A DNA stretch of 64,000 nt from an uncultured delta proteobacterium (GTDB taxonomy: Bacteria; Desulfobacterota; Desulfomonilia; Desulfomonilales; Desulfomonilaceae). Location of the stretch: the NCBI GenBank assembly GCA_963789265.1, contig CAWBKB010000007.1:128001-192000 (forward strand). Reading direction: 5' to 3'. A model generated the notes under the pieces. The model was not told the DNA's origin and searched no databases. It saw only the letters and a program-made list of their open reading frames with translations. Made by a program: the position numbers and the translations under genes. Below, one piece after another: positions 300 through 18,157 of this stretch (the first letter of the stretch is position 1; the number at the start of each line of letters is the position of its first letter).

Positions 300-1517
300 A
301 TGGCCGGAAACGTTTCTGATTTCATGAAGCTCTGGACCCAAAGCGACCAGGCTTCAGAGCGCCTGCTCCAAAAGTTCTTGCTCGTGGGACTGGACAAAGT
401 CGTTCAAGGCCAGAGCGATGTCCTCGCCAAGATCCCCGTGGGTCAGCCCGCAACGGGGCCGGTGGTACGATGGCTGGAAGAATGGGGATATCCATCGCAA
501 GTTACTGCAACCCTTGCCGGAAATATTTTGACATTTTCGGGCTATCTGTTCGGCCGTCCGGTAGATGCAGATTCCATAAAGAAAGTGATCCGAACCGGAA
601 CCATCCTGGAACGCCCGACTGACGGAGTTCAGGCAAAAGTCTCGTCTGTAGACGGTTTAACCGCCACGGTCGCGGCCTACGGCAACACCACTTTGAGCAA
701 CGATTCCGGATCGGTCGGCTGGGACATCATTTCTGAAGTGTGGTCCGACTACCGTGACGCCACTGACCCGCGATCTCTGGACAGGATCTTCCGAGAGGTC
801 GGAACTCAGATCCATGCGGAGACCTTCGAGATTCCCAAGACCCGCAAAAACACCAAGTACGAGATCGTGGCCGATGAGACCCAGCATCAGATAACCGCGC
901 TCTTGGACAAGCTCAGACGACAGCTCGCCTTCGCGGTGCTCCGCTCCAGGCCGTACTATGACGGTTCGGACTACGTGTACGGGAACAAAACGGAAGAGCC
1001 CACCATGTGCGGCCTTTGCACGTGGCCTGTGATCACGCAGAGCGAACTCTCCAATCCGAACGTGTACGTCAACAAGAACTCGGTTGCTCTGACAAAAACG
1101 GATCTGGACAATCTCGCCAGACACCTGTGGCTGGACGAACAGGCCGATTACAACAAAGGGGACTGGCACATAGTTTGCCACCCGCTCACGCACCAGTATA
1201 TCCACGATTTTGACATCTCGTACCGCAGAATGGAAAAGGACGAAAAAGGCGTCGGATTCTACGTGGATCATTTTGACTCCAAAATCGGCAAGAGTTTTCC
1301 GATTCTTCCTGACAGGTACATGCGGCCCGATGTGCTGATGATCGTCAACTTCGGTGCCACGAAATACGGCTATTTTGCCAACGACAGACTCGATCGCAAG
1401 GAGATCCCCACTCAGGGAAGATATCAGCGCTGGCTGATCTCCTTCCAGACTTACGGGGTGGTGGTTCGCGGGCCAAGATCCAACATCGGCATGATCTTCG
1501 GCCTGCCCACGAGTTGA
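300..1517 (+). CDS. Phage major capsid protein, SU10/DUF5309-like, with an insertion domain
   Basis: 405 aa, AGGAG RBS; motifs VVRWLEE, TQIHAETFEI, LDKLRRQLAFAVL and TMCGL resemble HK97-fold SU10-type MCPs; first gene of the structural cluster. Confidence 0.8.
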   Translation: MAGNVSDFMKLWTQSDQASERLLQKFLLVGLDKVVQGQSDVLAKIPVGQPATGPVVRWLEEWGYPSQVTATLAGNILTFSGYLFGRPVDADSIKKVIRTGTILERPTDGVQAKVSSVDGLTATVAAYGNTTLSNDSGSVGWDIISEVWSDYRDATDPRSLDRIFREVGTQIHAETFEIPKTRKNTKYEIVADETQHQITALLDKLRRQLAFAVLRSRPYYDGSDYVYGNKTEEPTMCGLCTWPVITQSELSNPNVYVNKNSVALTKTDLDNLARHLWLDEQADYNKGDWHIVCHPLTHQYIHDFDISYRRMEKDEKGVGFYVDHFDSKIGKSFPILPDRYMRPDVLMIVNFGATKYGYFANDRLDRKEIPTQGRYQRWLISFQTYGVVVRGPRSNIGMIFGLPTS

Positions 1518-1588
1518 TTCATGAATTTCATTTGATTGGCCGTGGAACTTGCTTACAGAGGCGAGCAACCGGCATCCCGCGTCTCGCG

Positions 1589-1770
1589 CATAGGCGTTAA
1601 GTTAAGCAGCAATTTTGTAGGATGTGCTGAGCGAAGCGAAGCGCATCGATTGTGTAAGACGGAGCGCTGACGCGGCCGATGCGCTTCCCCTGCTTTGGCA
1701 GGGTTCAGCACATCCTACATGTTGAACAGCAGTTTTTATTACGCGGCGCACTTAACTTAACGCGAATGCA
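1589..1770. mobile_element. MITE-like element (family A) enclosing a GTAG REP doublet
   Basis: Ends CATAGGCGTTAAGTTAAG...CTTAACTTAACGCGAATGCA, flanked by direct repeat CGTCTCGCG (1580-1588, 1771-1779); inner GTAGGATGTGCTGA...TCAGCACATCCTAC at 1617-1718. Confidence 0.7.
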
Positions 1771-1823
1771 CGTCTCGCGAGACCGGTCCTACTGGGTGCC
1801 AGCGTACGCGGGCATGACGATAT

Positions 1824-1852
1824 GTAGGGACGGGTTTGAAACCCGCCCCTAC
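1824..1852. repeat. GTAG-type REP hairpin
   Basis: GTAGGGACGGGTTTGAAACCCGCCCCTAC palindrome. Confidence 0.65.
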
Positions 1853-2035
1853 CGAACTTGCTCCCAGATGAATCGGTATCAGCCGTTCCAGAGTGACGAC
1901 AAAACCAATTTATTTCCCAATCAGCTCCCGGAGAAAAGCTTTTCTCCAAGGCCCGGCGCTTATTACTGAACTTTAATTGCAAGGGGACCTACCGCGGCTG
2001 GGCCGGGTCCCCACCTTCGAACCGAAAGAGGATAA

Positions 2036-2359
2036 ATGATGAAACCTGTTCCAAGGGATGATAACGGCCATCCGCTCCTGGACCGAGGCACGGAACTCTT
2101 CACGACTCGAATTGTAGGGCAAGACACCACAATGTCGCCGTTGGCATTGCCTACTGATTGCAAGGAGGTGCTCTTGCACGTGGAATCAGGGACCGAGATC
2201 CTGCTCGTGAGCGGCACCATAGAGGGCTCCACTGCCGCCAGGCTTACGGATTCCGGTTTCAGTTGGGCGGTTCCCATCACAGCGGCGAGTGGCAGCACTA
2301 TTGCCTATCTGGCTGCCGCGACGGGCACGTGCAACATAAGCATCTTTGCTTGGAGGTGA
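2036..2359 (+). CDS. Small beta-rich putative virion (decoration/fibre) protein
   Basis: 107 aa, AGAGG RBS, lies between MCP and fibre gene, coupled to next ORF. Confidence 0.6.
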   Translation: MMKPVPRDDNGHPLLDRGTELFTTRIVGQDTTMSPLALPTDCKEVLLHVESGTEILLVSGTIEGSTAARLTDSGFSWAVPITAASGSTIAYLAAATGTCNISIFAWR

Positions 2360-2362
2360 AAT

Positions 2363-3658
2363 GTGGGCAACATGGTTATCGTTGCCGGCCGAGGTGGGCA
2401 AAGCGCCCCTACGGGTATTGAGCGAATTACCGTGCCGTCAGGTCGCTTGACCGTCCCTCCTGCTTACATGCAGACTTCCGGCGATGCTGCTGTTCAGTCG
2501 AGCGTGGCAACCGGCGGTATGGCCTTTTTCGGCTGGACTCAAGAAGCGGATTTTGCTCTCTCTTCGTTCAGCGTTTATCTAAACACCGTGACAACGCCGG
2601 GGATCTTTTCGTGGAACCTCTCTGAGGCAGATTCGAACGGTGATCCAATAGTTGGAGACGACGATCCTTACGGTGAAATTACCAGCGGGTCAAGCGCCGG
2701 AGTTTGGTTACGGACGACATTTGTGCCGGTACAGCTACAGCGTGGGAAAAGATACTGTCTTGTTTTCGGCGTGTCAGGATCATGCAACGTTTCTTATTCT
2801 GCTCGCAGGCAAAATCCGGCCATAGGCTCAGGGCATCCCCCGGGCTGTTGGAGCAAAACGAGCACGGACGGGGGAACGACCTGGTCCGATCTTCAGCAGG
2901 ACTCGCGGCCGGCTCTCTTGAATTTAGTGCTCAATTCCACTGCCCATCACTCCCCACAACTTTACTTCGGTCAATATTCCGGCGAGTCCGTGTACCTGCC
3001 GGGAGCGGGCCTACGAACGATTCCTCCGGTAGGAATCCCTTTTGATTGCGAAAGCTTGACTCCAGATACGCTTTACAATGTGTATTTGTGGGACAATACC
3101 GGCACGTTGACACTGGAAGCAGCGACTACGGGTCGCACAATGAGTGAAGGTATCGAGATCAAATCTGCATCACCGGGAGGGCTTTATCTGGGGCTCATCT
3201 ATCCCATCGAGAGACAGTCCGGCTTTCAGGCCCCAATCAAAGTCCCCGATTGGATGGGAGTGTATAACGCCTACAGCCGGCGCACGACCTTCGTGGGCAA
3301 GCCCAATCCCTACTCAGCAACGACGGAGGGTTCAGGATCAGACACCAATTGGGTCGCTATCAGCGATTTCGCGGCCAAGTTTGTGACAGGGGAGCAGTGC
3401 CGGTTGGCGTCGGACTTCGGCCTCGCGTCAGTGAACTCCACAAGACTTACCATCTTGCTGGACGGAGTCGCCCTGCCCCTTGTTCCCATAGTATGGACCA
3501 CTCGCACATCGGATCTTGTCTCTGTTCACGCCGAATTCGTGCTGTCCGAAGGTTGTCACACGGTGTGCCCTGCCGCGTCCGGATGGCCTGCCTTCGATTA
3601 TTCCCTGTACGATCCTATATACGGAAGCAGTTCATTGACAGGGGAGATCATGGCGTAA
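2363..3658 (+). CDS. Putative head/tail fibre or receptor-binding protein
   Basis: 431 aa, G/S/T-rich beta-type sequence; TLYNVYLWDNTGTLTLE...YLG...VYNAYSR segment resembles phage fibre domains; GGAGG RBS. Confidence 0.65.
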   Translation: MGNMVIVAGRGGQSAPTGIERITVPSGRLTVPPAYMQTSGDAAVQSSVATGGMAFFGWTQEADFALSSFSVYLNTVTTPGIFSWNLSEADSNGDPIVGDDDPYGEITSGSSAGVWLRTTFVPVQLQRGKRYCLVFGVSGSCNVSYSARRQNPAIGSGHPPGCWSKTSTDGGTTWSDLQQDSRPALLNLVLNSTAHHSPQLYFGQYSGESVYLPGAGLRTIPPVGIPFDCESLTPDTLYNVYLWDNTGTLTLEAATTGRTMSEGIEIKSASPGGLYLGLIYPIERQSGFQAPIKVPDWMGVYNAYSRRTTFVGKPNPYSATTEGSGSDTNWVAISDFAAKFVTGEQCRLASDFGLASVNSTRLTILLDGVALPLVPIVWTTRTSDLVSVHAEFVLSEGCHTVCPAASGWPAFDYSLYDPIYGSSSLTGEIMA

Positions 3659-3762
3659 AGCGCATCGGCGGTGCTCGAACAGCAAAAGTTGGGCAAAAGA
3701 CGGCACTTTCCTTGGCCTCTGCGACTTCCACGGTGAATGATTTTCGTCCGAGAGGATTGTAA

Positions 3763-4116
3763 ATGTCCCCCAACATGTCCGATCGCGAATTGCTTGAACA
3801 TCTCAGGCTTGACGTGGCCGTCATCAAAGAGAAGCTCCCTCTTCTCGAAAAAATCAGCAATTGCCTGAGCAACCTGAAGAGCAACTGCCGGACCCGCCAC
3901 GAGGATTTGGAGAAGGCACGCCATCGGCGGCACGAAAGACACGAAGTACGATTCTCCGAGCTGGAAACAGCACAAAGAATGGCCCACACCTTTTACGAAG
4001 CTCACGCCTCGTGGACAAATAGGCATAGAGCACTCTTCTGGTCCTCCGTAGTCGCGGTCGCTACCTCGGCGCAGGTGCTGGCGACAGTTATCTTGCACTT
4101 CTTGTCGGTACATTGA
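3763..4116 (+). CDS. Coiled-coil protein with C-terminal TM helix (holin/XhlA-like)
   Basis: 117 aa, GAGG RBS, hydrophobic C-terminus, precedes lysis genes. Confidence 0.55.
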   Translation: MSPNMSDRELLEHLRLDVAVIKEKLPLLEKISNCLSNLKSNCRTRHEDLEKARHRRHERHEVRFSELETAQRMAHTFYEAHASWTNRHRALFWSSVVAVATSAQVLATVILHFLSVH

Positions 4117-4135
4117 GCCACGGAATCAGAACTAA

Positions 4136-4313
4136 CCGCAGAGAACGCTGAGACCGCAGAGTAAAACAAAACTTGTTCAACGTCATGCGCGTCATCAATG
4201 CGAGTAGCAGGGCCGCATTTGCCTGCATTGTCACAGACCGGAATGGGCCGTGCTCCATCAGTTAGACGGGCACGGGAAAATAGACTTCTCCGCGGTCTCT
4301 GCGATCTTCGCGG
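4136..4313. repeat. Host palindromic repeat (ACCGCAGAG..GCAGAG family)
   Basis: Inverted ends CCGCAGAGAACGCTGAGACCGCAGAG / CTCCGCGGTCTCTGCGATCTTCGCGG; relatives at ~14322, ~28826 and 32981-33177. Confidence 0.7.
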
Positions 4314-4472
4314 CGCATCCTCAATGCCCGGTGAACGTCTGCACTAAGTGAGTCAGAACAGCGCCGGGGAACTTCACCATAATAGACCGAAATCTCCTTT
4401 GGCAACGGGAACTTGATCCAGCAACTTGGCTTGGACTTGACCAGGCTAGAATTCGCTTAGTTGGGAGGCGCC

Positions 4473-4772
4473 ATGTTGAGAGAAATCAAACAGTGGATTA
4501 TCGCATCGACCGCCGGGGTTCTCGGAATCGCCGCATTGCTTTTCGTGAGCCCATGGGTACTCCCGGACGATCCGGCCGCTCTCTTGCGCTACGTCATCAT
4601 CCGGGTGATTGCGGTATTGATTGGCATGATTGCCCTGACAGGAGGAATGCTCTTCGTGGATTTCATAACCCCTGACGATTGGATGGATGGAATTGGGAAA
4701 GACCATACAGCTTCAGCTATTCTCATGTCTGCTGTCGTGCTTGTTATTGGCGCAATTCTTTGCTGGACCTGA
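4473..4772 (+). CDS. 3-TM membrane protein, DUF350-like (holin candidate)
   Basis: 99 aa from ATG after GGAGG; three hydrophobic segments; TPDDWMDGIGKDHTASAILMSAVVL resembles DUF350. Confidence 0.6.
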   Translation: MLREIKQWIIASTAGVLGIAALLFVSPWVLPDDPAALLRYVIIRVIAVLIGMIALTGGMLFVDFITPDDWMDGIGKDHTASAILMSAVVLVIGAILCWT

Positions 4773-5211
4773 CGCCTGGGCTCTCACTCCGGCTTACCGG
4801 AGCTCCCTGAAGCGGCAGTTAACATTCATCGTAGCAAAACATCCGAAATATTCCTGGGGCGGGAGTGACAGCCTCGATCTGGGATTGGACTGCTCAGGCT
4901 ACATTTTCCTAGCTTCCAAATGGGCGGGAATTCCCGGGATCACTCGCACCACTGCATTGCGCATGTCGTTGGGATTGGGTGGGTGGCAGGGCAAGGACAT
5001 CGACCGCTCCCAGGCTGATGAATGTGACCTCTCATTTTGGACGTTCAAAGAAGAGAGGCTAAACGGCCACGTTGGAGCCTTCCTTTGCGGGCCTGACAAT
5101 GCAATGCAGGTCACTCACGCCAGCCTGAGAAGAGGTATCGTGCTCGATCGGCTAGATGGGCTGCTCCTGCAAAAACTAACCAAGGTTCGAAGACTAACCA
5201 TAGGAGACTGA
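4687..5211 (+). CDS. NlpC/P60 cell-wall peptidase with signal peptide (endolysin candidate)
   Basis: YSWGG...GLDCSG, GHVG and THAS give the Cys-His-His catalytic signature; N-terminal hydrophobic signal ending DAWA. Confidence 0.85.
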   Translation: MELGKTIQLQLFSCLLSCLLLAQFFAGPDAWALTPAYRSSLKRQLTFIVAKHPKYSWGGSDSLDLGLDCSGYIFLASKWAGIPGITRTTALRMSLGLGGWQGKDIDRSQADECDLSFWTFKEERLNGHVGAFLCGPDNAMQVTHASLRRGIVLDRLDGLLLQKLTKVRRLTIGD

Positions 5212-5213
5212 AA

Positions 5214-5411
5214 ATGGATTCAACAAAGGTATGGTGGACTTCAAAAACAATATGGACGAATGTCATTGCCTTGATAGGGTCAGTTGTTATCGCTGTAGGC
5301 TTTGATCCCGGACGTTGGGCTGAGATTTCGACTGTTTCACTATCTGTGGTGAACCTGATTCTCAGGCTTTACACAAAGGAGCCCATTTCTCTCGATTCGG
5401 GAGGGAATTGA
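5214..5411 (+). CDS. Small 2-TM holin-like protein
   Basis: 65 aa, KVWWTSKTIWTN...NLILRLYTKEP pattern typical of phage holin-like proteins. Confidence 0.7.
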   Translation: MDSTKVWWTSKTIWTNVIALIGSVVIAVGFDPGRWAEISTVSLSVVNLILRLYTKEPISLDSGGN

Positions 5412-5878
5412 TGGCTCAACACAAAAGGAGACAGAAAGCTTTGCCCCCAGGAAGCGCGGAATCTGTCACTGCTGACACGGTTCATCAGCCTCGTGCGGAC
5501 TGGGGACAGATCAAGAATTTTACACCTCGCGACTTCACGTGCAAATGTGAAGGTCTCTGTGGACATCCGGATGTAATTTCACCGGATCTGGTGGCAAAAC
5601 TCGACAAGGTCCAAGATCTCGTCGGCCTGCCTGTCACTATTCGGTTCGGGACTCGGTGCGAAAAATTCAATCGGAAATCCGGCGGCAGAGAGCGCTCGTC
5701 CCACACGGTCAAGGATGGAGTCAGTCACGCTGCCGATATTCACTGCCCGGATGCGAGCTTTAGGTTTGCGTTCCTCACTGCTGCGCTCCCAATTTTCAAT
5801 AGGATAGGCATAGGTAAAGACTTCGTTCATGTTGATGATGATCCTGAATTGCCGCAAAACGCCGTGTGGATTCGGTGA
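5411..5878 (+). CDS. Peptidase M15A (Zn D-Ala-D-Ala-type) endolysin
   Basis: NFTPRDFTCKC, GTRC..FN, SSH...AADI and FVHVD motifs; TGATG overlap with holin. Confidence 0.85.
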   Translation: MAQHKRRQKALPPGSAESVTADTVHQPRADWGQIKNFTPRDFTCKCEGLCGHPDVISPDLVAKLDKVQDLVGLPVTIRFGTRCEKFNRKSGGRERSSHTVKDGVSHAADIHCPDASFRFAFLTAALPIFNRIGIGKDFVHVDDDPELPQNAVWIR

Positions 5879-5893
5879 GCAAAGGGAGGAATC

Positions 5894-6568
5894 ATGGCTA
5901 CCGCGCAGGATGATACGCAGGCTTCCACTTGTGAGGGTAGAGTTGGGACCATCATTGACACTGCTCGGGATCTTTTCAACGAGGCGGCAGGAGCATTCCT
6001 CACTCAGGCATTCATTTTGCGCTGTATCAATCTATGCCAGCAGGATATTGCCAAGGATGAATACTGGCGCCGCGAATCCTGGGTTCCCAGCCTCTCCGGC
6101 ATAAACGAGATGGATCTTCTCAACGTTATCCCACAATATCAACGTTTGCACCAACTTCGTTTCTGCTCAGGCAGAGACCCGATGATCCCTCTAGGGAGCT
6201 TTCAAGAATACGAGGAGCTGAAAACCGCCTCCAACGCACCCGGGCTTCCGGAATATTACGTGGTGCAAAACAGCACGGTGTTCGTATGGCCGCCGCCTGA
6301 CCAGAACCTACAATCCGGCTTCTGCGTCTACCATTCTTATCTGCCTGATGATTTAACGTGTTCGGCGGTCAATCCGAACCCTCCCGTGCCAAAAGCCCAC
6401 GACATGATGTTCGTGTACTTCGTGTTGAAACACGCCTTCTTGAGGGACCGTCACGCTCCTGGAGCGGATATCAAGTTTCAGGAGTACTCTGCCTTGTACG
6501 AGCGAGAGAAACAAAAGCTGCTCGCCGCAGGGGATGCCCCGGGCATTTCTCTAAGGTCCTACAGGTAG
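5894..6568 (+). CDS. Phage head-tail adaptor protein
   Basis: 224 aa; GLPEYYVV...VFVWPPPD and PVPKAHDMMFVYF motifs typical of podoviral adaptors; directly upstream of nozzle. Confidence 0.75.
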   Translation: MATAQDDTQASTCEGRVGTIIDTARDLFNEAAGAFLTQAFILRCINLCQQDIAKDEYWRRESWVPSLSGINEMDLLNVIPQYQRLHQLRFCSGRDPMIPLGSFQEYEELKTASNAPGLPEYYVVQNSTVFVWPPPDQNLQSGFCVYHSYLPDDLTCSAVNPNPPVPKAHDMMFVYFVLKHAFLRDRHAPGADIKFQEYSALYEREKQKLLAAGDAPGISLRSYR

Positions 6569-6634
6569 CTCTAGGAAGGCTCGCCTGCCGGGCGGAAGCC
6601 CTTTGGAGTATCCATTCGCTTAAGTGCGGCAAGC

Positions 6635-6721
6635 TGTCATTGCGAGGAGCGAAGTGACGAAGCAATCTCTCTTTTAATCCAGTAAATCCAACGAGATTGC
6701 TTCGCTGCGCTCGCAATGACA
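6635..6721. repeat. Host palindromic repeat (TGTCATTGCGAG...CTCGCAATGACA family)
   Basis: Inverted ends with internal GAAGCAATCT/AGATTGCTTC; related copy at ~49365-49510. Confidence 0.8.
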
Positions 6722-6813
6722 AACAAGCCCCCTAGTTCTTCCCCCGCGAGAGTGAATGGTTGCCTTTGGAGCCCCTCGGGGGGACCGGCCTTTCACGGTT
6801 TCAAGAAAGGGAT

Positions 6814-9800
6814 ATGACGTTGACACAGGATTCATACCGCACGACTAATCTCTTCGACTGGACTGGTGGGATAGTTGGCCGAAGACACAACCCACTCCAT
6901 TTTCCAACAAACGCTCTTGCAGCCGGTGAAAATGTAGATCTTACGGACGGCTCTCTTCGCACCCGGCCAGGTTCGTCTCTCATGTCCGATGATTCTCTTC
7001 CCTCCGGCGAAGTCATAGCGCTTACACAGGCGCGGTTTCCGACGCAGGAAGTCAGCTATCTTGTGGCGCAGGTGGGTAAGTACGCTCCCGAATCGACCGG
7101 CTATCAGATTCTTGTCTCCGGGCCGCCTCCAAGAATCGGGCACTCAGCAGTGTGGGATACCCCGAGACATCGTATCCTCGTGTTCGGCGGGTACACGGAC
7201 GTTGATCTGTTGAATGACCTCTGGGCATTCTACTCCGCCACGGAAACATGGGAGCAGCTCAACCCTACGGGAGGTCCGCCGAGTGCCCGTGCGTTTCACA
7301 CTGCTGTTTTCGATGTTGTCACAAACCGTATGGTTGTCTTCGGTGGAACCGCTTCGGATGGCTGTCAAAACGAGGTTCTGGCTTCTCGATTGTGCGACGC
7401 TCACATGGAGTCAACAAACCTGCTCCGGCACAATTCCCGCTGCTCGATACTGGCACCAGGCGATTTATCGAAGCTCAAACCGGTCGATGCTCGTGTCCGG
7501 CGGCATGAATGATGACCTGACCCCCGCGGAACACTATTCTGCCTTTAATTACTATAGCCTGGACCTGACTTCGTTTGTTTGGGCACAGATAACGACTTCC
7601 GGTTATGACGGTCTTGCAGACCCGGCATTACAAAACCGCTATCGCCATTGCATGGCCTGCGACGAGGATACAGGGGCAATCTATCTCCTGGGCGGTGAAG
7701 TCAACTACGGCCAAGGTTTTGTGGTGGATTGCTGGGAGCTTGCCGGGAGCGTCTGGACTGAGAAAGCCGCGCCCCCTGAAGCAGTTCAGGACAGCAAGGC
7801 AATTGTTTATAGCGGGCAGTTGATTGTGAGCCTGGAGGACGGGAATTTTCTCTTTTTCGACGGCAGTCAGTGGACAACCGAGACACCGCCAAATACGAGA
7901 TCGTTCTTCTATCACACATTCACCCTGACGAATGATAATGAGCTTTACGTATGTTCCAGCGACAATGATTCTCTGGTCGATGCTCAATTTTTCGTGTGGT
8001 CGGTTAACGGGATTATCGTAGGCGGAGGTACCGGCACGGGTCCCGGAACCATCGAAAACTATAGCCTCTACGCCTGTCCGGATCATCTCCCGACATCCAC
8101 CGGGGTGTTTACAAAAATCTTTGACTTCGGTGGAGTCTGTGGCGTGTGCAAATTCGCAGTGCTCAATGATCGGATCATAATCACCGAGGGTCTTGCAAAG
8201 CCCCCGCTCGTGTGGGGCGGCTGCATGGCAGACGACGCATCTGATTGGATGCACCCCAAAGCAGTGCTTGTTTCTCAGGATGGGCAGACCTTCTACGATG
8301 TGTCGAACTGGGTATGCAATGCAGATCCGGACACGGTTGCTCAGGTGGGAGGAATCCGGCCGTGGGGGTACATGGCATTTTGTACGGATATGCCTATTGT
8401 TGAGGGTTTCTATTTCGATGTTGAGAGCCCGAACGAGGGCGTGAGCGGAGTAACGTCAAACACTTTCGAGGCCCCCCCGGCCGCGATTACTAGCGCAGAT
8501 GATATTACCCGCCAGGATCTTCGGAACGGAATTATCACGAACTGGGTGCAGTCTTCCGGAGCGTCCGGTCATTTCGCCCAGGTTGTCGCACTCGATGAGG
8601 GCCAACCCACCGTTGATGAGGGAAGCGGGAAAACAGGTCTCCCATGCACCGGACAGCCGTTCTCGACAGGTGACAGCATCGTCATCGCAGGTACCACGAA
8701 TTACAATGGAACCTACACGGTGGATGCTTCGAGCACGGCCGACGTGATCGTCATCGTTCATGCGTACACCCTGGAGACAATCGGATCGGGCGCAACCGCG
8801 ACGAGATCCGCAAACATCAGTTTAGGGACCGGAAATCAGTGTCCGGACGTGATACCCGGAACTCTTGTTGAAGTCGGCGGAAATGAGCTGATGGTTACAG
8901 CCGTTACCGGTGACGGCACAGGGGCCGCTGGGGTGGCCCTTTCGGCGGCCCAGGCATCGGCTGCCGTCACTGCAATTTACGGGATACAGGTCACGGCGAA
9001 CGGCGCCACCATCAATAGTGAGTACCAGAATACCTCGAGTACAATCAATAATTCCGTTTCAGGTTCGACTCCACTGGCCGGGTACTCGATCCGAATGGTC
9101 ATCCCGGGCTCGAGCATAACGCAAGTCGCGGATCATATTCAGATCACGTTGAAGAACGCGGCCAGCATGCCGCCATTGCCGCCGATTGCGCCGGGACACT
9201 CAAGCGTTGGGTGGTGGGCTCAGTGGGCGATCAACTGGAAAGCTGTTTCAATAGTTCCCCGCAGTGGTTCAACTGCCGATGGAACAACCACACCGACACC
9301 GGTAACATTCAATAATGGAAAGCCTGCTTCAAGCCTGGGCTCATCAACTTCAGGTAATATTTACGTTCCGCAATACAGCAAGACATGGCAGAGCGACAAA
9401 ATTCAGTTCAGTGTCACGCCAGGCGAGGATCTTCTTTTAATTCTCGATCTTGGCTGGTCGTACAATCCCGTGTGGGATGGCCGTCAGTTCAGATCGGGTG
9501 AATTGCCAAGCTGCGCGGGCACCTCGTACATCAAGGATTACGGTTGGGGAAATGCGGGCGCCTCGGCCGATCAGCAAACGGTCACTGATTTTACCGAAGT
9601 ACCTTTCGTTTACGGGCTGTCACAATTCCTCGGTACGGACATACTGGCCATTTCCCCGAGGGATAATGTCGCGGTCACGACCAATTTGCTCGAGTATAAC
9701 ACGAACCAGTACGAAGCAATCGACAGTGTAACCGTGCAGGAAACCAAGCCGGGAACATCCACGATATTTCATGCAGTGAGCTTCGACGGCCGGAATACCT

Positions 9801-11978
9801 TCGCAGTGTTTCTGAACGGCGCATGGAAAAGCATAGTCCAGCAGAGCGGGGGCACTTGGCAATATCTTGACGGTTCGAGTGCCTGGCAGAACGCGTCTTC
9901 CAATACCCTCTTGTCCGCACTTCGTCAGGCCCTCGCTATTTCTGCAAATCAGATGACCGGGGCACAGGTCGCCGCGATAACCTCAGTCCAGTGGTCGTCG
10001 GCAGGCGGATTTGTGCCCCATATTACTCAGACCTTGGATTTTGCATTCAGGCTCGAAGCTGACCAGACAACTTTGACAAACTTACCAACCTTGACCAGCT
10101 ACACACTCACGTACGAGACGAGCGGTAGCACTACAGGGATAATGCAGGTTCTGGGAAAACGGGCGGTGGACCGACATAACCGACTGGACGGATGGAACAC
10201 TGGCCAATGGCAACCGACTCGCTCAATCGGGAATCATCGGCGGGCCTGCCGTCACCGCGGATTACTCTGTCTTGAATGGAGTGCCGGGTTTCTGGTACCG
10301 ACTCAAAACCAACGGGACAAGCCCCCTTTGTGCGATAACCGAGATTCGGTACAAGGCGCCGTGTCAACCGCTTTCGAATATCGGAGACGGGCAACCTGAC
10401 ATCGGGCAGGTCATTCTTCACATGATCAGTACCGGCGCAAGTCCGCAAGATATCTCTGTTGCGATGGCAGACAACACCCTTACCTCTTTGGCATCCGCGG
10501 GGATCCCCATGACCGCGACTGACTTTCTGTACGTGGGATACCCGACTCACTTCGATGAAGTGGAGATCACACCGTACGCGGACCCCAGCGATACAACGTT
10601 CACGAATAATCAGGCGACTTCGGAACTTTCCGCGGATTACTGGAATGGCGAAGCCTGGGTTGCTCTGACGATCAATGACAGAACGATCGGCGGATCGAGC
10701 AATACTTTTGCTGAGAAAGGACGTATTTCATGGACACTTCCCTCGGACTGGCAAACAAGTATCCCGTTCGATGCGTTTTTCTCAAGAGGCTACTGGCTTC
10801 GCTTTCATGTATCCGCTGCGCTCGCAAGCACCGCTGCGCTCTCGGAAGTTCGGGTGTACGGAGTCCCGAATTCCTTAAAAAAATACAGATTCGTGAGTAC
10901 TTTCGGCAATCGTATAGCCCTGGGGAATCGTTCTGATGCGCCGGATCAGGTGGACATTTCGCGACAATTCGAGGAGTACGGATACACAGGCCAAGACTCC
11001 GCGAGTTTCCGGCTTGGCGGGGAGGACCAGATTGCATCAATGATGGCAGCCTGGGACGGGTTGCTCATCGGCAAGACTGGGACTTTTCACTTCCTGCAAG
11101 AGGGAGCCGAAAGTTTCCAGAGTGTGGAGGCAGGGCGTCACGTTCCGATCAATACGCAGGTGATGGTGAAAGCCCCGCTCGGGGGATTCGATTACGGTGA
11201 TAGATACGGTCTTTTCTTTATTAATCGGTATGGTGCTTTCTTTTCTACCGGCTTGCACACTGACAGTATATTCAATACTTCTCGCGGCAAAACCATAAGC
11301 GATGTGCTCAATTGGTGGGATTCTTCTATAACGCCAAGATTAGACTTGGATTACCTACACCTGGCCTGCGGCGAGTACTGGCCGGCGAAGAATTGGGTTA
11401 TATGGGCAGTTCCGATGATATTTTCGGGGCAGGGCCCGCAGGCTGCTAATAATGCGCTCATCGTTTATGATTTGACCCTCGGGGCTTGGTTGCCTCCGTT
11501 CGTCTTCCCGTTCGGGATGGCTGCCCTGAGCACCGCCTACCATTACAATGCCGATGATCCTCAGAAGCTCGGGGATATGGGGCTGTACGCAGGGGATTAT
11601 GAAGGGCGCGTAATAAGATTGTTCCCGCCGGGCATTACCTCTGATTTGGGCTCCACAATTTCCGCTTGGGCAGAGACTGGATGGCTCGACTTTGGTTCGC
11701 CGGAATACAGGAAGCTGCTACGAATGCTCTCCCTGTGCGGCAAATCCGAGAATCACATGATAACCGTGAACATGTTCAGCGATGGAGAAACGTGTGTTCC
11801 CGTCGTCGTCGAGTATCAAAACCTGTCAAGTTTGGGAAGTCATAGCTTCGCGTTGGAGCAGGAACCCAACAATCTCCAGGGCCGTTTCTTCAAGTTCCGG
11901 ATTGCGTTCAGTGCTGAGAGTGAGGTTCACGGACTTCAGATAGCCATGTCACTGGTCCGCGAATGGGGGTCGTTGTGA
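6814..11978 (+). CDS. Large tail nozzle / DNA-stabilisation protein (~1,720 aa) with inserted Kelch repeats and fibre-like domains; two frameshifts (~7376, ~10145)
   Basis: N-term DWTGG...ENVDL.DGSLRTRPG and C-term AETGWLDFGSP...GRFFKFRI are nozzle-type; Kelch repeats PPPRIGHSAVWD, PSARAFHTAVFD and PAARYWHQAIY continue across the frame change; ORFs 6760-7512, 7214-10399 and 10272-11978 join. Confidence 0.7.
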
Positions 11979-12045: not shown

Positions 12046-12888
12046 ATGCCATCTCCAAACTATGGAGGAAAATTGTCCGGGAACTTCGGGAGCTACTCGT
12101 CCTCAAGAGACAACCCCTTCCTGGAACCGAGCAGACAAATAGCTGACTTGATCGCGCGGCTGTCCAGTGCGCAGATGCAGGGATCAGCGAGCGGAACACC
12201 GGGAATCAACAGTGGATCATTCTCCTGGCAGAGCCACGCGGCTCGCCCCGCAGATCCCGAGGTGCGGGACTACATGTCCAACGTCCTGGGAGGGCAACGC
12301 AACACTCTCGATGACTACGTGCGCAGGGCCGCAGGCGCGAGCATCAAGCGCGGTGGAAAGACCACTGCCGGCGGGCCGCCCCTGGACTCCGCGTTGTACC
12401 AGCAAGCCATAGAAAGTCTTGCAAAGGGCTATGGAGACCGGTTCCGTGATGCAATGAATTACAACCGATACGTGAAAGGAACCGAGTCGAGCCAGGTCTC
12501 CGATAACATGAGAAACTTGCAGAACCTTCTGAGCCTGCAGCAGCGCTATCTTTCCAGCGCTACAGATTGGAAACAGAAACAGACAAGCTTGCCCGGCGTA
12601 ACCACGAATCCGGACGCCGACCTGGACCGCGCCTTGAAGGCGCTTTCCCTGGAGCACCTGCGCCGCCAAATGGAAATGGAACAATGGCAGAATGCGGCTA
12701 CTAAGGATGATCGCCAGAAAGCTTTGGACGAAAAAATTGCGGCTGAAGAAAGGTGGGCAGGGCTCGCGGTAAAACCCAGTTTGACATGGGGTCCGGGAGA
12801 TGCTGCGTTCAACGATCTGGCTGGAATCAGAATCGGTTACCAGTCGCCGTGGCAGCGAAAAATGTCGCTTAATCGCCGCGGATTGTAA
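12046..12888 (+). CDS. Putative internal virion / DNA ejection protein
   Basis: 280 aa, GGAGG RBS, Q/S/G/A-rich helical sequence, position after nozzle as in podoviruses. Confidence 0.55.
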   Translation: MPSPNYGGKLSGNFGSYSSSRDNPFLEPSRQIADLIARLSSAQMQGSASGTPGINSGSFSWQSHAARPADPEVRDYMSNVLGGQRNTLDDYVRRAAGASIKRGGKTTAGGPPLDSALYQQAIESLAKGYGDRFRDAMNYNRYVKGTESSQVSDNMRNLQNLLSLQQRYLSSATDWKQKQTSLPGVTTNPDADLDRALKALSLEHLRRQMEMEQWQNAATKDDRQKALDEKIAAEERWAGLAVKPSLTWGPGDAAFNDLAGIRIGYQSPWQRKMSLNRRGL

Positions 12889-13036
12889 GCAACGAGTCTT
12901 TAGTTCATCGTTACATATACGTGGTCGCGGATTCAGAACAGGGGCGGCAGGGGGAAACTGTCTCAAACGTGCGGACGAAGTCGATATCGTGCCACGAAAG
13001 TCGCTAGAGTTCTGGTTCCCAATCCCGCGTCTCGCG

Positions 13037-13191
13037 CATTCGCGTTAAGTTAAGGCAATTTCGCTCCCTTTTCAGGAGGTCCATGCAGGCCGAGGGGGAT
13101 CAAAGTCCCCCTTTTCTAAAGGGGGATTTAGGGGGATTTCCAGGGGGTTAGCATAAAATCCCCCCTAGCCCCCCTTTACGAAAGGGGGGAA
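13037..13191. mobile_element. MITE-like element (family A), inverted and one-end-truncated copy of the 52552-52731 element
   Basis: Starts CATTCGCGTTAAGTTAAGGCAATTTCG after CGTCTCGCG; reverse complement matches 52575-52730. Confidence 0.7.
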
Positions 13192-13704
13192 CCCCGCGTC
13201 TCGCTGGACCGCCTGGGAATCCCGCGGGGCGCGGGACTCTGCCCGCAAACTGCCCCCATTTCATTATCATAGTCGAGGTAGAGCTTGGCGCTAGGCATTC
13301 CCAGGCAGAGCCAGGGAACGAGAAAAAAGGCGTCCTCAATTATTTGGCTTTCCTGATTTCGGTTATGACGCGGAATGGCAGCTCCCCTACAGAGCGCTCT
13401 CCAAGCCGCCCCGCAGTGGTTCCCGATTTTTGAGTTGACAAATTAGGTTAATTATGGTCCCATTGCCCCCAACAGAGAACATGTGTTTTCCATTGGGCGC
13501 CCGGCAACCAAGTGGATTGCTGTCAGGCTTCCATTTGGAAAGGCCCATCAATGACCCGACGAGTTAACCTAAGAAGTTCATAATCTGTCGGCCGCCACCT
13601 GATTGGGCCTATCGCCGGGCCTTAACGTCGAAGATCCCTGGAAGAGGGACCAACGAGGGAGGCTTTTCTGCCGACCTCGCAATTCCAAAGGTTGGAGGCG
13701 GATC

Positions 13705-13935
13705 ATGGAGAGAGTCAATCATCGCAAACTTGTGTCTCATTCATTCGACAAGCTCCACGAGCAACTTTCCGTTCTCCGAGTCCATGTGGAGGAAATGGAC
13801 GACCCCGTGGCTCGTCGGCATTTGGAATCCATGGAGTATGGCCTGCTCGCGCCCATGCGCAAGCTCAGAATACATCTGGGCATCCCGTACGACTGGCACG
13901 AACAGAGGCCCACACTCAAGGAGGCGACTCGATGA
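13705..13935 (+). CDS. Hypothetical protein (76 aa)
   Basis: GGAGG RBS; ATGA overlap with next gene. Confidence 0.6.
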   Translation: MERVNHRKLVSHSFDKLHEQLSVLRVHVEEMDDPVARRHLESMEYGLLAPMRKLRIHLGIPYDWHEQRPTLKEATR

Positions 13936-14318
13936 GCCAAGGTGCCCTTACCGTCGAACAGTGGAAAGAGATGAACGCTCATAAGCTGATTGAATGTCGC
14001 TGGGGCTGCAACATTAGTTTTGAAGCGTGCCGCCTGTACCAGGCAAGGACCGGACGTTACGTGCTTCACTTCAACGGCCAACGAGAGCCGTATCCGCGGA
14101 TCAACGCGGATTACCTGAGGTGTTTCTTGCCGGAACCTTGTCCCCACGTGATATCGGACGATGAAATCCGCGGCCTGGAAGCAACGCTCGGCCCCGTTAA
14201 TCACCGCCCCCGTCCGGAACGTCGCGAACGGTCACGGCATGCGAGGGAGTTGGATCGCCTCGTAAATCCCGATCTCATGTTGCGTGAAGCCCGGTGGAAT
14301 CGTTCCCTTGTCCGGTAG
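13932..14318 (+). CDS. Hypothetical Cys-containing protein
   Basis: AGGAGG RBS, translational coupling; CRWGC...C...C....C. Confidence 0.6.
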   Translation: MSQGALTVEQWKEMNAHKLIECRWGCNISFEACRLYQARTGRYVLHFNGQREPYPRINADYLRCFLPEPCPHVISDDEIRGLEATLGPVNHRPRPERRERSRHARELDRLVNPDLMLREARWNRSLVR

Positions 14319-14527
14319 CAGTTCACCGCGGAGGACGCAGAGACCGCAGACGGACTTGGTCCGTTTCGCTTTCGTTGCCGGGCTCCGCCTGGCAATGCAT
14401 GCTCTTAGGGCTCGGCCCGAAATAAGAACAGCGATTGATCCCTCTCAGTTTGCAGAAAACCGGAGGCAAAACCTCCCCATGAGCGTTCCAGGCAAGAGCC
14501 TGGGAACGAGGATTAAAGGATGTCTCG

Positions 14528-14731
14528 ATGAAAAGATCGGAAATGGTTTGCAGCAAGTGCATCAAGTTTGAAAGAACTCAATGCCGCCTCGACCCAGAAG
14601 GTCTCCCGATCGATGAGCCGGACAAGCACTGGTGCGCTCAAGGCCAGTGGCAAGAGTGGTCGGAGCGATACCTGGAAATGGAACCCTTCTACTGGGGCGA
14701 ATGGCAAGAGAATTGCCTGGAGACTGCGTGA
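14528..14731 (+). CDS. Small Cys/Trp-rich phage-type protein
   Basis: AAGGA RBS; CxxC...CR..P...WC motif. Confidence 0.6.
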   Translation: MKRSEMVCSKCIKFERTQCRLDPEGLPIDEPDKHWCAQGQWQEWSERYLEMEPFYWGEWQENCLETA

Positions 14732-14937
14732 TGCTTCTCTGAGGATAGATGACCAAAGCCAAGATGCGGCGAATGAGGCTAACAGCGTCGCCCGCGAGGA
14801 AACCCGGGTGATGCCGGTTTCCTTGTTCGCCGCACCTTGTGCCTGCTCGCATTACCTTTTCGTTTTCTATCCCGCATAATCTTCGAAACTCCGTTCAATC
14901 GTACCCAATTGGTCAAATGCATTTCGGAGGTTGACCC

Positions 14938-15261
14938 ATGCAAATTCCAGAAAAACTGACAATCTTCTCCAGAACCTACGATGTCCATGATGTGGACCCG
15001 ATACATGCTTATGATGGGCTACTGGGGTTGGCGGCTTATCGGGATGGTGTGATCTATCTTGACCGAAATATGGACCCGCCCCTGGCGCTGAACACCCTCT
15101 GGCACGAAGCATTCCACATCGCGCAACAAGAGATTCTTGGAACCGTAGATGAAGCCCAGGCCAGATGGGTATCGCTATTCATTCACACCTTCCTTTTGGA
15201 AAATCCTGCCATCCTGCAAAGCTATCTCGACGCATCGAGTCCTGCCTCCTTTCACGAATGA
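14938..15261 (+). CDS. Phage-type HExxH zincin-like protein
   Basis: GGAGG RBS; MQIPEKLTI...NTLWHEAFH...E...ENP, a pattern common in phage proteins. Confidence 0.75.
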   Translation: MQIPEKLTIFSRTYDVHDVDPIHAYDGLLGLAAYRDGVIYLDRNMDPPLALNTLWHEAFHIAQQEILGTVDEAQARWVSLFIHTFLLENPAILQSYLDASSPASFHE

Positions 15262-15355
15262 GAAACCTGACGAAGTGCGAGTATGGTTCGGTGAATGAAG
15301 CGGACCGCATCGCTTGCAAGAATGCTTTCAATAGAGATTCCTGTATCATCCCCAA

Positions 15356-15766
15356 ATGACCCAAAAAAGAAAACGCTTAATTGAGGTGGCCCGTGATGCC
15401 CCTTCACCAGAGGCCGATGGATCGGCAACGGCCGCCGAGGCTGGATTCGACCCTTCTTTCCTCGCCCAAATCCGGGAGTTGGCCGCGTCGGGGCTGACGT
15501 CTTCCTCCGCGCTATCGCTGATCACGAAGCTTATCGCCGAAACTCCCGGCGCATCCAAAGAGGCAATGGACCGGATCAAAATGATGGACAAACTTCTCAA
15601 TACCGCCCGAGCAATGATGGAGACTCGGCTGAAAAATGAGGAAGCCGCAGCCATCACCGCAAAACTCGATGAAATGGAACTTCTGATCGAAAAGCTGGCG
15701 ATTCAAAGGGCAGGTGAACCTAATCGGTGCGTCGAAGTCAGAGACGGTCGCGGGCAGGATGAGTGA
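15356..15766 (+). CDS. Helical protein, terminase small subunit candidate
   Basis: 136 aa coiled-coil, overlaps start of terminase large subunit. Confidence 0.5.
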   Translation: MTQKRKRLIEVARDAPSPEADGSATAAEAGFDPSFLAQIRELAASGLTSSSALSLITKLIAETPGASKEAMDRIKMMDKLLNTARAMMETRLKNEEAAAITAKLDEMELLIEKLAIQRAGEPNRCVEVRDGRGQDE

Positions 15767-17483
15767 ATCTGTACATCCTGAACAAGCTGGCTTCCGGCGG
15801 TCGAGGATGCGGCTCGAAAGATTGTCGGAACGTTTGCAACAGCTTGCGCCCCGTCCCGGGGAGGAATTGTTCCATATTCAGCGGTTCATCGAGGATCTAA
15901 AGATCATCAATAAAAGGGGCGAACTGGTCTCCCTCATCATGAACCGGTCCCAGGAGACGGTATTCCACAGGCTCATGGAATGTCGTGAAAAGAAAGTCCC
16001 GGCCCGTTTCATCTGCTGCAAGTCCCGACAACTTGGTATCTCCACGCTTATCGAGGCATTCATATTTGCCCTGATCACACACTATCCCAACCGGTTTGCT
16101 CTGGTCGCGGCAAATTCCATTGAGAGCGCCCAGACGATCTTCGCGATGGCTCAGCGTTTCCTCCGTTACCTTGGACCCCGTCACACCCCTCGTCCGGCCA
16201 CTGTCAACGCACGCCGAATTGAATATCTGCCGCCTCATCATTCACGGCTGCAAATCGACACGGCCGCGAACAAGGGCCTGGGACGAGGCGGCACTCTTCA
16301 CTATGTCCATGCCAGCGAAGTGGCCTTCTGGGAGAAGGCTGAAGATCCGATTCTAGCCATCAACCAGTCGGTCCCACAGCACTGGGACACTCTCGTCTTT
16401 TGGGAATCCACGGCAAATGGAATGCACAATCTATTTCACCGAACGTGGATAACCGCGGAACGCGGGGAATCGGACATGCAGCCCATATTTCTTTCTTGGA
16501 AAGGATTTCCGGAGTACAGCCTTCCCGTGGCAGAGCGAGAACAACTCGACCTTACCCCGGACGAGGAAGTCTATGCCCGGAAATACGATTTGAAGACAGA
16601 CCAGATCAAATGGGCTTGTTACACGAGAAAGAATCAGTGCCACAACTCCTGGGAAAAATTCCATCAGGAATACCCTGTGGCCCCACAACTTGCCTTCACC
16701 TTCACAGGAATGCCCTGGTTCAACCAAGATGCGATTCAAGAGTCGCTGGAGAATTTGGCCCGGCCTCCGCTTAAACGCGGGAATCTGGAGTTCTCGGCTG
16801 ATGGTGCCTCAATCCCCACTTTTGTAACAGACCCAACAGGGCCTCTGGAAGTTTGGAGGCAGCCCGAGCCGTCGCACACATATAGCATTGGAATGGATGT
16901 CGGGGAAGGCGTCGCCGCGGATTACACCGTTATTCAGGTTATATGCAACGAAACGGGCGAAGTGGTTGCACGTTACCGCTCGAACCGCGTCCGAGCCGAA
17001 ACCGCGGGAGTAGACGCATATCTTCTCGGAACGTACTACAACTTCGGGCTGCTCGGGATCGAGCGCAACGGTCCCGGTCTCGCCTCGCTCGCGGCATGCG
17101 AACGAGGGCTGTCGGAATATCCGCAAATGACCGGATATCCCAACCTCTACTATCACACTTACACTGACCGCAAGATCCCGGAAGAGACCCGACGTTTGGG
17201 ATGGATCACCAACAAAACCACTAAAGAAGCCATGCTGAGCAGACTGGCACTGACTTTCGAGAGCCGCGGGCTCAAGATATACAGCAGAACCACTCTTCTC
17301 GAAATGCAAGGCTTTGTCTGGGATGCCGAGAAAAGATGCTTCAGGCAGAATTACAAATCTCCAGATTCACGGCTTGCTCACGACGATGAGATCATGGCCC
17401 TGGCGATAGCCAACGAGATGCGATCTCACTCGTGGGAAAACCGCTTTATTCACGGCCGACTGCCTCGCGGAGGGGAGTTTTGA
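15759..17483 (+). CDS. terL: Terminase large subunit
   Basis: Walker A KSRQLGIST, Walker B VHASEVAF, coupling ESTANG, nuclease IGMDVGEG..DYT and HDDEIMALAIA. Confidence 0.92.
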   Translation: MSESVHPEQAGFRRSRMRLERLSERLQQLAPRPGEELFHIQRFIEDLKIINKRGELVSLIMNRSQETVFHRLMECREKKVPARFICCKSRQLGISTLIEAFIFALITHYPNRFALVAANSIESAQTIFAMAQRFLRYLGPRHTPRPATVNARRIEYLPPHHSRLQIDTAANKGLGRGGTLHYVHASEVAFWEKAEDPILAINQSVPQHWDTLVFWESTANGMHNLFHRTWITAERGESDMQPIFLSWKGFPEYSLPVAEREQLDLTPDEEVYARKYDLKTDQIKWACYTRKNQCHNSWEKFHQEYPVAPQLAFTFTGMPWFNQDAIQESLENLARPPLKRGNLEFSADGASIPTFVTDPTGPLEVWRQPEPSHTYSIGMDVGEGVAADYTVIQVICNETGEVVARYRSNRVRAETAGVDAYLLGTYYNFGLLGIERNGPGLASLAACERGLSEYPQMTGYPNLYYHTYTDRKIPEETRRLGWITNKTTKEAMLSRLALTFESRGLKIYSRTTLLEMQGFVWDAEKRCFRQNYKSPDSRLAHDDEIMALAIANEMRSHSWENRFIHGRLPRGGEF

Positions 17484-17485
17484 CA

Positions 17486-18157
17486 GTGCGTGCGGAATAC
17501 CTGGAAGACGGCGCGATAGCGGTAATCGGGACAAAGGGAAAACAAACCTTCAACAAGGTTTGGGCCGGGATCGGCTGGCCGGACAGTGAAGCCGGTTACA
17601 TATCTATTGTGGGCGAGCGCGCAGACCACCGATATCATGCGCTGTGGGAGAAGACCGGCGGCCTGTGGGAACTGGGAGTAGCCGCGGTTGAAGCCAAGAA
17701 TCGTTTGCTAGTCGACAACATCTGGGTCGATTCCCGCGATGCGGTCGCAACCTCGTATCTCAGGACCCTGCCCGGCCTGTGTTTCCATGAGGAGCCGTCC
17801 AAGAGGGCTTTAACGACTGTCGTCGGAACTCATCCTCCGGCCAAAGCGTCGCGTTTCACAGAGCCGGAAACGATGGCAAGCATAATGTCGGTTCCCGAGC
17901 GGGCCACAACAAACTATCGGTCCGCTCTTGAGAATACGAGAGGTGTGATAATGGCTTCTAAACTTCTGATACACGAGCAGAACTGCCCCAAACTGGTCTA
18001 TGCACTGAGACAGCCTCTGGAAGATCTGCTCAGATCGCCTGTCATGAAGGGCTTGGTTTGGGTACTGACGGCTCTTGAGGAAGCCGGGAGAAACGCGGGG
18101 CTGGAGCTTTCCGCATCGGACCCCTGGTACGCCAATACGCCGAGGCGGCGAATATAA
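17486..18157 (+). CDS. Hypothetical protein resembling a stand-alone, degenerate terminase RNase H-like domain
   Basis: WAGIGWP...YISIVGE...YHALWE...IWVDS...LLIHEQNCPKLV follows the layout of TerL C-terminal domains. Confidence 0.5.
   Translation: MRAEYLEDGAIAVIGTKGKQTFNKVWAGIGWPDSEAGYISIVGERADHRYHALWEKTGGLWELGVAAVEAKNRLLVDNIWVDSRDAVATSYLRTLPGLCFHEEPSKRALTTVVGTHPPAKASRFTEPETMASIMSVPERATTNYRSALENTRGVIMASKLLIHEQNCPKLVYALRQPLEDLLRSPVMKGLVWVLTALEEAGRNAGLELSASDPWYANTPRRRI

Follow-up and report, generated by a model that had tools for sequence, protein, structure and literature searches.

Tailocins, type VI secretion systems (T6SS) and extracellular contractile injection systems are phage-derived and kept by their hosts, and several of them deliver polymorphic effectors; they have contractile or long tails and are headless. 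Gene transfer agents (GTAs), as described in passages of two articles (PMC11841831, PMC9662315), have packaging, structural and lysis genes and no replication genes, are mostly inherited vertically, have split loci and use a small terminase (TerS) without a DNA-binding domain. New GTAs are not findable by homology, according to a passage of the first of these (PMC11841831), and part of a 2024 article (PMC11409702) lists five genetically distinct types and names Dd1 as the deltaproteobacterial GTA. Capsid-like toxin delivery encoded by prophage remnants was proposed in 2012, in sections of Zhang et al. (PMC3482391), and the available sections of Jamet et al. (2017, PMC5576092) report MuF toxins from temperate phages and prophages alone, for the most part siphoviruses. 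Here, we analyzed a window of 64,000 nucleotides (positions 128001-192000 of contig CAWBKB010000007.1, below C7) from G000, the genome of an uncultured deltaproteobacterium of the family Desulfomonilaceae. The window covers most of a ~21.4 kb virion module of the SU10/P22-like podovirus type, the portal end of which lies upstream. Outside subscription journals and supplements, we found no description of this element in the literature, and none joining "gene transfer agent" with Desulfomonile.

The module is very probably domesticated. To judge by its genomic record, the element is GTA-like and mostly vertically inherited, with losses and exceptions (genomes G031 and G024), and what is new here is a putative capsid-linked polymorphic toxin system with a previously undescribed leader. 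An original prediction, made from the letters of the window alone, had named capsid, fibre, lysis, adaptor, nozzle, ejection-like and terminase genes on one strand. All of these were recovered in place on the + strand, as was every module gene between 300 and 18157, and the portal was found upstream of the window, where it had been guessed to lie. The labels capsid, adaptor and large terminase (TerL) stood by family and nozzle by fold, while "fibre" and "ejection-like" were left as labels by position, without informative family match. The module genes, including conserved open reading frames (ORFs), are:

C7:124783-126912, upstream of the window: portal (SU10_portal)
L001:18912-19196 (C7:126912-127196), between portal and scaffold-like ORF: highly conserved ORF of 94 amino acids (aa), without family match
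L001:19150-20000, after the 94-aa ORF and upstream of the capsid gene: scaffold-like ORF, with a frame change in the G000 assembly
300..1517, +: MCP-A, the module major capsid protein (MCP), SU10-like (PF17236, SU10_MCP, E 6.6e-31; ratio of nonsynonymous to synonymous substitutions, dN/dS, 0.02-0.05)
2036..2359, +: 107-aa protein, by position a probable head or fibre-attachment protein; kept in relatives, without family match
2363..3658, +: variable 431-aa protein, by position and variability a probable fibre (38-63% identity in most relatives)
3763..4116, +: membrane-anchored protein of 117 aa, hydrophobic at its C-terminus as seen in the sequence, heading the lysis cluster (dN/dS 0.06-0.12)
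4461..4772, +: small membrane protein, putatively holin-like (weak DUF350 match below the cut-off), kept across genera
4687..5211, +: NlpC/P60 peptidoglycan peptidase (PF00877)
5408..5878, +: M15 peptidase endolysin (PF08291, phrog_894)
5894..6568, +: head-tail adaptor (PF24175, SU10_adaptor, E 4.7e-17)
6760..11978, +: podovirus nozzle/tail-hub gene whose N-terminal and middle parts contain Kelch and change fast (from family, fold, reads and relatives)
12046..12888, +: 280-aa protein conserved in the alignment, candidate ejection or internal protein by position only, without family match
13705..14318, +: two small conserved ORFs of 76 aa and 128 aa
14938..15261, +: small HExxH metallopeptidase-like protein (phrog_1233, E 1.5e-8; weak DUF6782)
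15356..15766, +: candidate TerS, position-based, with an unconserved N-terminus and a conserved core
15714..17483, +: TerL (phrog_2; T4 gp17 alignment)
17432..18157, +: stand-alone 241-aa protein with a terminase-nuclease-like fold (best fold E 4.7e-4)

Close capsid homologues came from records of Desulfomonile or Desulfomonilaceae. Among the 36 other family genomes, the MCP was found in 28, and TerL and portal in 29 each; none of the three was found in 24 sister-family genomes, nor the MCP in 393 other genomes of the phylum. Across all 70 genomes of the family, TerL matched in 43, of which 38 were at ≥56% identity (21 of 26 genera) and five were divergent, at 38-43%. Portal and TerL are essentially single copy, and the gene order of the module is the same across several genera. 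The downstream host flank is common to three genera, with an AAA ATPase and a GGDEF response regulator in seven genomes, an HMG-CoA-lyase-like gene in six, and ahcY, metK and MatE in five. Upstream, EamA and LptD genes were each found in five genomes, and G023 has both contexts. In genus g11, the capsid gene was relocated to a stand-alone site among housekeeping genes, with the rest of the module beside lptD.

Across five genome pairs, dN/dS was 0.02-0.3 for most module genes. The synonymous divergence (dS) of MCP, TerL and portal was like that of rpoB: 0.27, 0.38 and 0.42 vs 0.39 for G000-G001, 0.92, 0.95 and 1.01 vs 0.94 for G000-G006, and 0.41, 0.48 and 0.43 vs 0.36 for G033-G010. Trees of module genes had 6-8 of 18-21 splits in common with the rpoB tree (random mean 0.2-0.3), with Mantel rho values of 0.58-0.71. 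Together with the family-wide spread, single copy number, common flanks and the g11 relocation, dN/dS values far below 1 and rpoB-like dS bear out domestication under purifying selection, as had been proposed.

Genes for an independent phage life were looked for around the module. No integrase was found within 200 kb, in agreement with the original prediction; the sole tyrosine integrase on the contig is at C7:357896, >200 kb beyond the module end. No resolvase was found on the contig, and no tRNA gene within the 64-kb window. Replication genes were not recognised among the module ORFs, the primase, helicase and polymerase families not having been searched genome-wide. The repeat scan of the window, which was not a search aimed at att sites, returned only dispersed host repeats, of which the following (unstranded) lie in or beside the module:

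53..182: palindromic repeat dispersed in the host genome (up to 58 other copies), between the scaffold-like gene and the capsid gene
1574..1858: two host repeat blocks (1574-1739 and 1771-1858), 19 and 70 copies elsewhere, intergenic
4135..4313: host repeat block, 19 copies elsewhere, intergenic
6607..6726: host repeat block, 43 copies elsewhere, intergenic
12954..13329: host repeat cluster, directly before the small gene that adjoins the RecT/exonuclease arm in phage relatives

Repeat insertions had been described as confined to the DNA between genes, and six multi-copy blocks (up to 19-70 copies elsewhere in the genome) indeed had zero overlap with module genes. The repeat at 14322 fell below the copy cut-off of the overlap test; it is a member of a four-copy family in the window.

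The ORFs had also been called intact apart from probable assembly indels, and for two breaks in the nozzle gene this proved right. The nozzle is shown as three ORFs only through single-base assembly errors near 7376 and 10149. Near-identical short-read contigs are one base shorter at 7376 in one run and at 10149 in both (one of the two may be the source sample of G000), the frames are open across both break points, and relatives have single frames of 841 and 1715 codons. The rpoB gene of the G000 assembly is likewise in three pieces. The frame break in the scaffold-like gene is probably an assembly error; the short reads gave no resolution there.

The toxin arm was recognised by a leader (toxN), which makes up the first ~75 residues of the toxin and has the core QRRWWFATHPE followed by a second conserved block. 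It had no Pfam or PHROG family match and no usable match in the ESM Atlas. Toxin loci on C7 are:

C7:112216-113625, 11 kb upstream of the portal: toxin cassette with AHH nuclease and Imm11, with a stop codon after the leader
18923..18985, +: toxN leader remnant just downstream of the module; toxin cassettes are at the same position in relatives
C7:229699-231062, outside the window: toxin cassette behind a second capsid gene (MCP-B), with a CDI EC869-like nuclease and CdiI

The stop in the upstream leader could not be resolved with short reads. The leader profile matched 17 of the 36 family genomes and G000 (18/37), and none of 24 non-family genomes. Only 156 matches were found among 1.84 billion proteins, nearly always N-terminal. 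In 185,579 species genomes, 54 loci were found, all titled Desulfomonilaceae, Desulfomonile, Syntrophaceae, deltaproteobacteria or Thermodesulfobacteriota, bar one titled "bacterium". For the Pfam domain scan, we used the 106 proteins of ~180 aa or more among the 150 leader matches listed. By hand count, toxin-type C-terminal families were present in 55 of them and were of 11 kinds: AHH (23), Tox-REase-5 (9), Tox-GHH (7), LHH (5), NucA (3), DUF2380 (3), and one each of Ntox17, CDI EC869, WHH, Tlde1 and colicin/pyocin DNase. The leader protein P0205 has a Tlde1/L,D-transpeptidase-like end, unlike the nuclease majority, which suggests the cell wall as its target. P0221, a 1034-aa repeat protein, was rejected as a spurious profile match.

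A closely coupled ORF was found 3' of 37 of the 41 full-length toxin ORFs, a count without null control, and the locus L147 has three tandem CdiI-like ORFs. Leader proteins have the polymorphic-toxin layout, that is, a conserved N-terminal domain, interchangeable toxin domains and a downstream immunity ORF. The host site of the cassettes varies from genome to genome, additional immunity-like genes accompany them, and orphan cassettes consist of a capsid 3' fragment and a leader. Linkage to the virion genes was counted for 59 leader loci (64 profile rows, with four split pairs merged and one weak row dropped). A capsid gene or capsid 3' fragment lies ≤500 nt upstream of 21 of these, one of the fragments having been taken from the comparison of relatives' loci. 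Within 5 kb of a capsid, portal or TerL match there were 40 loci, and within 15 kb 47, vs ~0.9 expected by chance.

Other routes of toxin delivery were searched as well. T6SS VipB was found in none of 26 genomes, many of them incomplete drafts, 17 of which hold the leader; the positive control worked. In the search for ShlB/CdiB, no control gave a signal. A signal-like hydrophobic stretch was seen in none of the 41 full-length toxin ORFs. Nuclease toxins have to enter the cytoplasm of a different cell. As these carry no signal peptide and the searches gave no alternative injection system, a particle encoded in the neighbourhood is the simplest carrier. In an unrelated virus contig, the QRRWWFA motif also opens a small ORF that lies between the portal and the minor head genes, a single case and a hint, and in a further virus contig it was seen close to the C-terminal end of a protein (L204:8001-8054). 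The short motif may be a general virion-associated element.

Among the module genes, the capsid gene alone has a second copy in G000. This copy, MCP-B (C7:228357-229571), is 70% identical. Directly behind it comes the gene for a 307-aa protein with a CDI EC869-like nuclease domain at its end, and then the CdiI immunity gene. Among the 120 capsid homologues listed, 30 are MCP-B, with diagnostic residues at positions 11, 172, 227, 326 and 344 and a dN/dS of ~0.1. They formed one clade both in FastTree (support 0.997) and in a fast IQ-TREE run (98.9) from which seven partial or broken capsid copies were left out. Near-complete MCP-B copies were directly followed by the leader in 13 of 17 cases, and module MCP copies in 1 of 25. 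A second capsid clade accompanied by toxin-immunity cassettes suggests that the particle is also, or instead, a weapon. In three genomes, the DNA upstream of MCP-B has, by eye, a TATA-like stretch followed by TTAGAGG...ACTT (L028:16107-16356, L139, L146), possibly a promoter or regulator site. In G031 there are four closely related cassettes of MCP-B and toxin, spread over three contigs (G031 loci L145, L176, L178, L150, L152 and L153), which suggests recent cassette movement.

The nearest phage relatives were two uncultured phage contigs, L160 and L161. They have the same head genes, with identities to the module of 57-65% for the capsid, 36-42% for the portal and 36-38% for TerL, and in addition RecT; L160 also has an exonuclease and a helix-turn-helix gene. 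They differ from the module in RecT and other early genes; G000 had no match to this RecT or exonuclease. The toxin leader and nozzle were not found in these contigs, which are only 12-43% complete. Within the family, G083 holds a module remnant with a CI-like repressor, and G031 holds a divergent module interrupted by an insertion sequence (portal 34-36%, TerL 43%). The ancestor was probably a temperate phage that was captured more than once.

Compared with the known GTAs (RcGTA, BaGTA, VSH-1, Dd1 of Desulfovibrio desulfuricans, VTA), the module likewise has only packaging, structural and lysis genes recognised and no replication genes found, is mostly vertical and has genes at several loci; its candidate TerS, with no DNA-binding family detected, may be a further parallel. 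It differs from them in its SU10/P22-like podovirus ancestry, in a capsid without close relative outside the family in the phylum sample, and in its link to a toxin-immunity system with its own capsid paralogue. It bears the genomic marks of a GTA, and we regard it as a candidate, not a member. Escherichia phage SU10 and P22-like podoviruses resemble it in the SU10-family capsid, portal and adaptor and in a nozzle fold like the tail hubs of SU10 and P22. In contrast to tailocins, T6SS and contractile systems, the module has retained head, portal and terminase genes; in G000, neither a sheath family nor VgrG/GpD gave a match.

MuF toxins, in the parts available of their descriptions, similarly have a conserved N-terminal domain, a variable toxin domain and a downstream immunity ORF, are encoded beside head genes and are proposed to be head-borne. 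By analogy, the toxin arm would work as parts of these accounts propose for MuF toxins (PMC5576092, PMC3482391, PMC12226406). The MuF domain itself had no match in the Pfam scans of leader proteins or among the PHROGs for the leader region. Here, unlike in the MuF case, there is a host-resident podovirus module without integrase, a leader of ~75 aa, a second capsid gene and dispersed stand-alone cassettes.

On balance, we give even chances to the following reading: Desulfomonilaceae keep a podovirus-derived module whose short-tailed particles would package host DNA in a GTA-like manner and, in cassette-bearing lineages, would also carry polymorphic nuclease toxins into other cells. Taken by itself, DNA packaging with gene transfer seems somewhat probable, and so, in cassette-bearing lineages, would be the loading of toxins. 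Some cells would express the module and lyse through the holin-like protein and peptidases. Portal and terminase would fill the heads with chromosomal DNA, because no gene to excise or amplify the locus was found. MCP-B and toxin would come from a separate cassette, MCP-B co-assembling into the head and the conserved leader loading the toxin. The variable nozzle and fibre would then pick the target cell, into the cytoplasm of which DNA and toxin would be ejected. A cell with the matching immunity gene would survive and might recombine the DNA, and other cells would be poisoned. Orphan cassettes behind capsid 3' fragments would allow an exchange of toxins by recombination. Tentatively, and with less confidence than in the reading as a whole, we consider a head-based toxin delivery machine, in which the second capsid and the new leader would load swappable nuclease toxins alongside random host DNA, so that transfer and kin discrimination would be coupled, with DNA uptake by immune kin and killing of non-kin, and the cassettes could spread as a drive by way of the particle.

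Other readings place the weight differently. The module persists without the leader in many genomes, and cassettes are in varied host contexts, several of them beside insertion sequences, as would fit a plain GTA. On that view, selfish addiction modules or cargo, in the form of the toxin-immunity pairs, would insert by homology at capsid genes and move as DNA, and the toxin protein would not enter the particles. However, a dedicated full-length capsid paralogue under purifying selection accompanies the toxins, and a conserved leader in front of a variable C-terminus (11 domain kinds, a Tlde1-like cell-wall domain among them) is how delivered toxins are built; we consider the plain GTA unlikely. 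Still less likely is a pure weapon, a head-based counterpart of tailocins in which DNA serves ejection pressure or is a by-product, with no useful gene transfer, and toxin-free lineages would have different effectors or another means of killing. The nozzle evolves far more quickly than the other module genes, a pattern of host-range arms races, and the lack of a T6SS in the genomes searched agrees with such a weapon, but portal, TerL and the TerS candidate are under strong selection in lineages where no leader was found (G033-G010, G016-G036).

The family does contain related temperate phages with repressor or integrase (G083, G031), and copies of the module were present among IMG/VR contigs (L158, L159), which would suit a satellite, or a defective prophage, that depends on a related phage for excision and replication and still packages its own DNA. 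Against it are the host flanks common across genera, the lack of an integrase near the G000 module, dS equal to that of rpoB and the moved capsid gene of g11, and the IMG/VR records are linear fragments, so that we hold this to be very unlikely. More generally, a T6SS, on which a T6SS-effector reading would depend, and an integrase with a variable site, as of an inducible prophage or integrated satellite, were not found, the G031 element being the exception. The MCP is the most conserved gene tested and is alone among housekeeping genes in g11, as an intracellular, encapsulin-like compartment might be, with the other genes in a non-infectious role; yet portal, terminase, adaptor, nozzle and lysis genes are all kept under selection, in g11 too, and such a compartment is even less probable than the satellite. 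A recently integrated or decaying prophage without host function, suggested by frame breaks in the assembly and by losses and broken genes in some genera, is largely refuted: both breaks in the nozzle gene stem from assembly errors, dN/dS values are far below 1, and the module is in 21 of 26 genera.

Several observations weigh against the reading of a domesticated, toxin-carrying GTA candidate. In G031, an integrase lies 1.6 kb from TerL, which points to independent captures of related temperate phages. Conflicts with the rpoB tree concern G031, G024 and G022, and deep nodes are weak. Patchy strain distribution, named beforehand as a sign against domestication, was seen in some genera (module in 4/14 genomes of g11, 3/8 of g22, 0/3 of g20 and 0/2 of g9, near-complete genomes included). 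Several module genes are broken in G076 and G079, the relatives are not independent samples, and G000 has a contamination rating of 6%. No large ejection proteins were identified among the module genes, and the particle is predicted here from gene content. On the toxin side, 12 of the 59 leader loci had no capsid, portal or terminase match within 15 kb, and nine of these had none anywhere on their contig. The leader was not found in many module carriers, among them the complete genome G033 as well as G007, G012, G016, G020, G027 and G036; toxins are therefore not the sole reason for the existence of the module, and the toxin arm is probably an add-on or often lost. We also dropped the claim that MCP-B arose after domestication, as its position was nested in FastTree and not nested in IQ-TREE.

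The nozzle is the fastest-changing part, with a dS of 1.0-2.3 vs ~0.3-0.5 for most other module genes (G000-G001). A PDB sequence search with it gave no match, whereas in the fold search its C-terminal 524 residues (structure model with mean pLDDT 69) best matched tail complexes of SU10, P22 and other podoviruses, with E down to 8e-12 (SU10 tail) and TM-scores of only ~0.3. In genus g11, a cysteine-rich ORF of 644 aa without PHROG match lies between the nozzle and the 280-aa gene (G016, L154:11920-13854). The ATPase and nuclease motifs of TerL are kept across 30 aligned genomes, bar gaps in truncated rows, and TerL is similar to the phage relatives at each motif. The adjacent 241-aa protein has a glycine at the expected first catalytic aspartate and was not matched by the TerL profile, fold alone linking the two; that it is a product of domestication was rejected, since it also adjoins TerL in phage-like relatives. 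The TerS candidate had no DNA-binding family match in Pfam or PHROG, and its counterpart in phage L160 is equally short.

Among the smaller genes, the 94-aa ORF shows almost no nonsynonymous change among genomes of the genus (dN near 0), is 83-95% identical in several genera, and was not found in the g11 modules. The 76-aa ORF has a homologue in phage contig L161 and another beside TerL in G031. The M15 peptidase endolysin was not found in the module loci of G033, G016, G036, G027 and G007, and the probable fibre is absent or replaced in some relatives. A 103-aa ORF at 14568-14879 is probably not a gene (dN/dS 0.7-1.6). The promoter and terminator scan of the module stayed at chance level.

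On the upstream side, a MazF-like toxin-antitoxin pair at L001:14915-15517, ~1.3 kb from the portal, is also present in G003 and G005. Directly 3' of the module, window positions 18279-18581 encode a 100-aa ORF of nearly all Asp/Glu repeats, possibly a DNA mimic or chaperone, and similar acidic ORFs are at the equivalent spot in G001, G002 and G006. Positions 19400-27000 are a low-GC insert between the module and the conserved host flank, with an N6/N4 methyltransferase and its probable partner nuclease, a P63C protein, an IS1595 transposase and a large split ORF. Relatives hold toxin cassettes or other inserts at this position, which gives it the appearance of an insertion hotspot.

A family-wide GTA candidate of podovirus type with defined genes is a new, testable lineage. 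Capsid-borne delivery of polymorphic toxins stayed a hypothesis in the 2012 and 2017 proposals, in the parts available of both (PMC3482391, PMC5576092). With a host-resident particle, a capsid paralogue of its own and a short tag as the loading candidate, the system described here makes the capsid-delivery idea directly testable, and, if true, a capsid-loading tag of 75 residues would be of use as a tool. The system also offers a possible answer to the question of why hosts keep costly, lytic GTA-like elements: these may double as weapons and kin filters.

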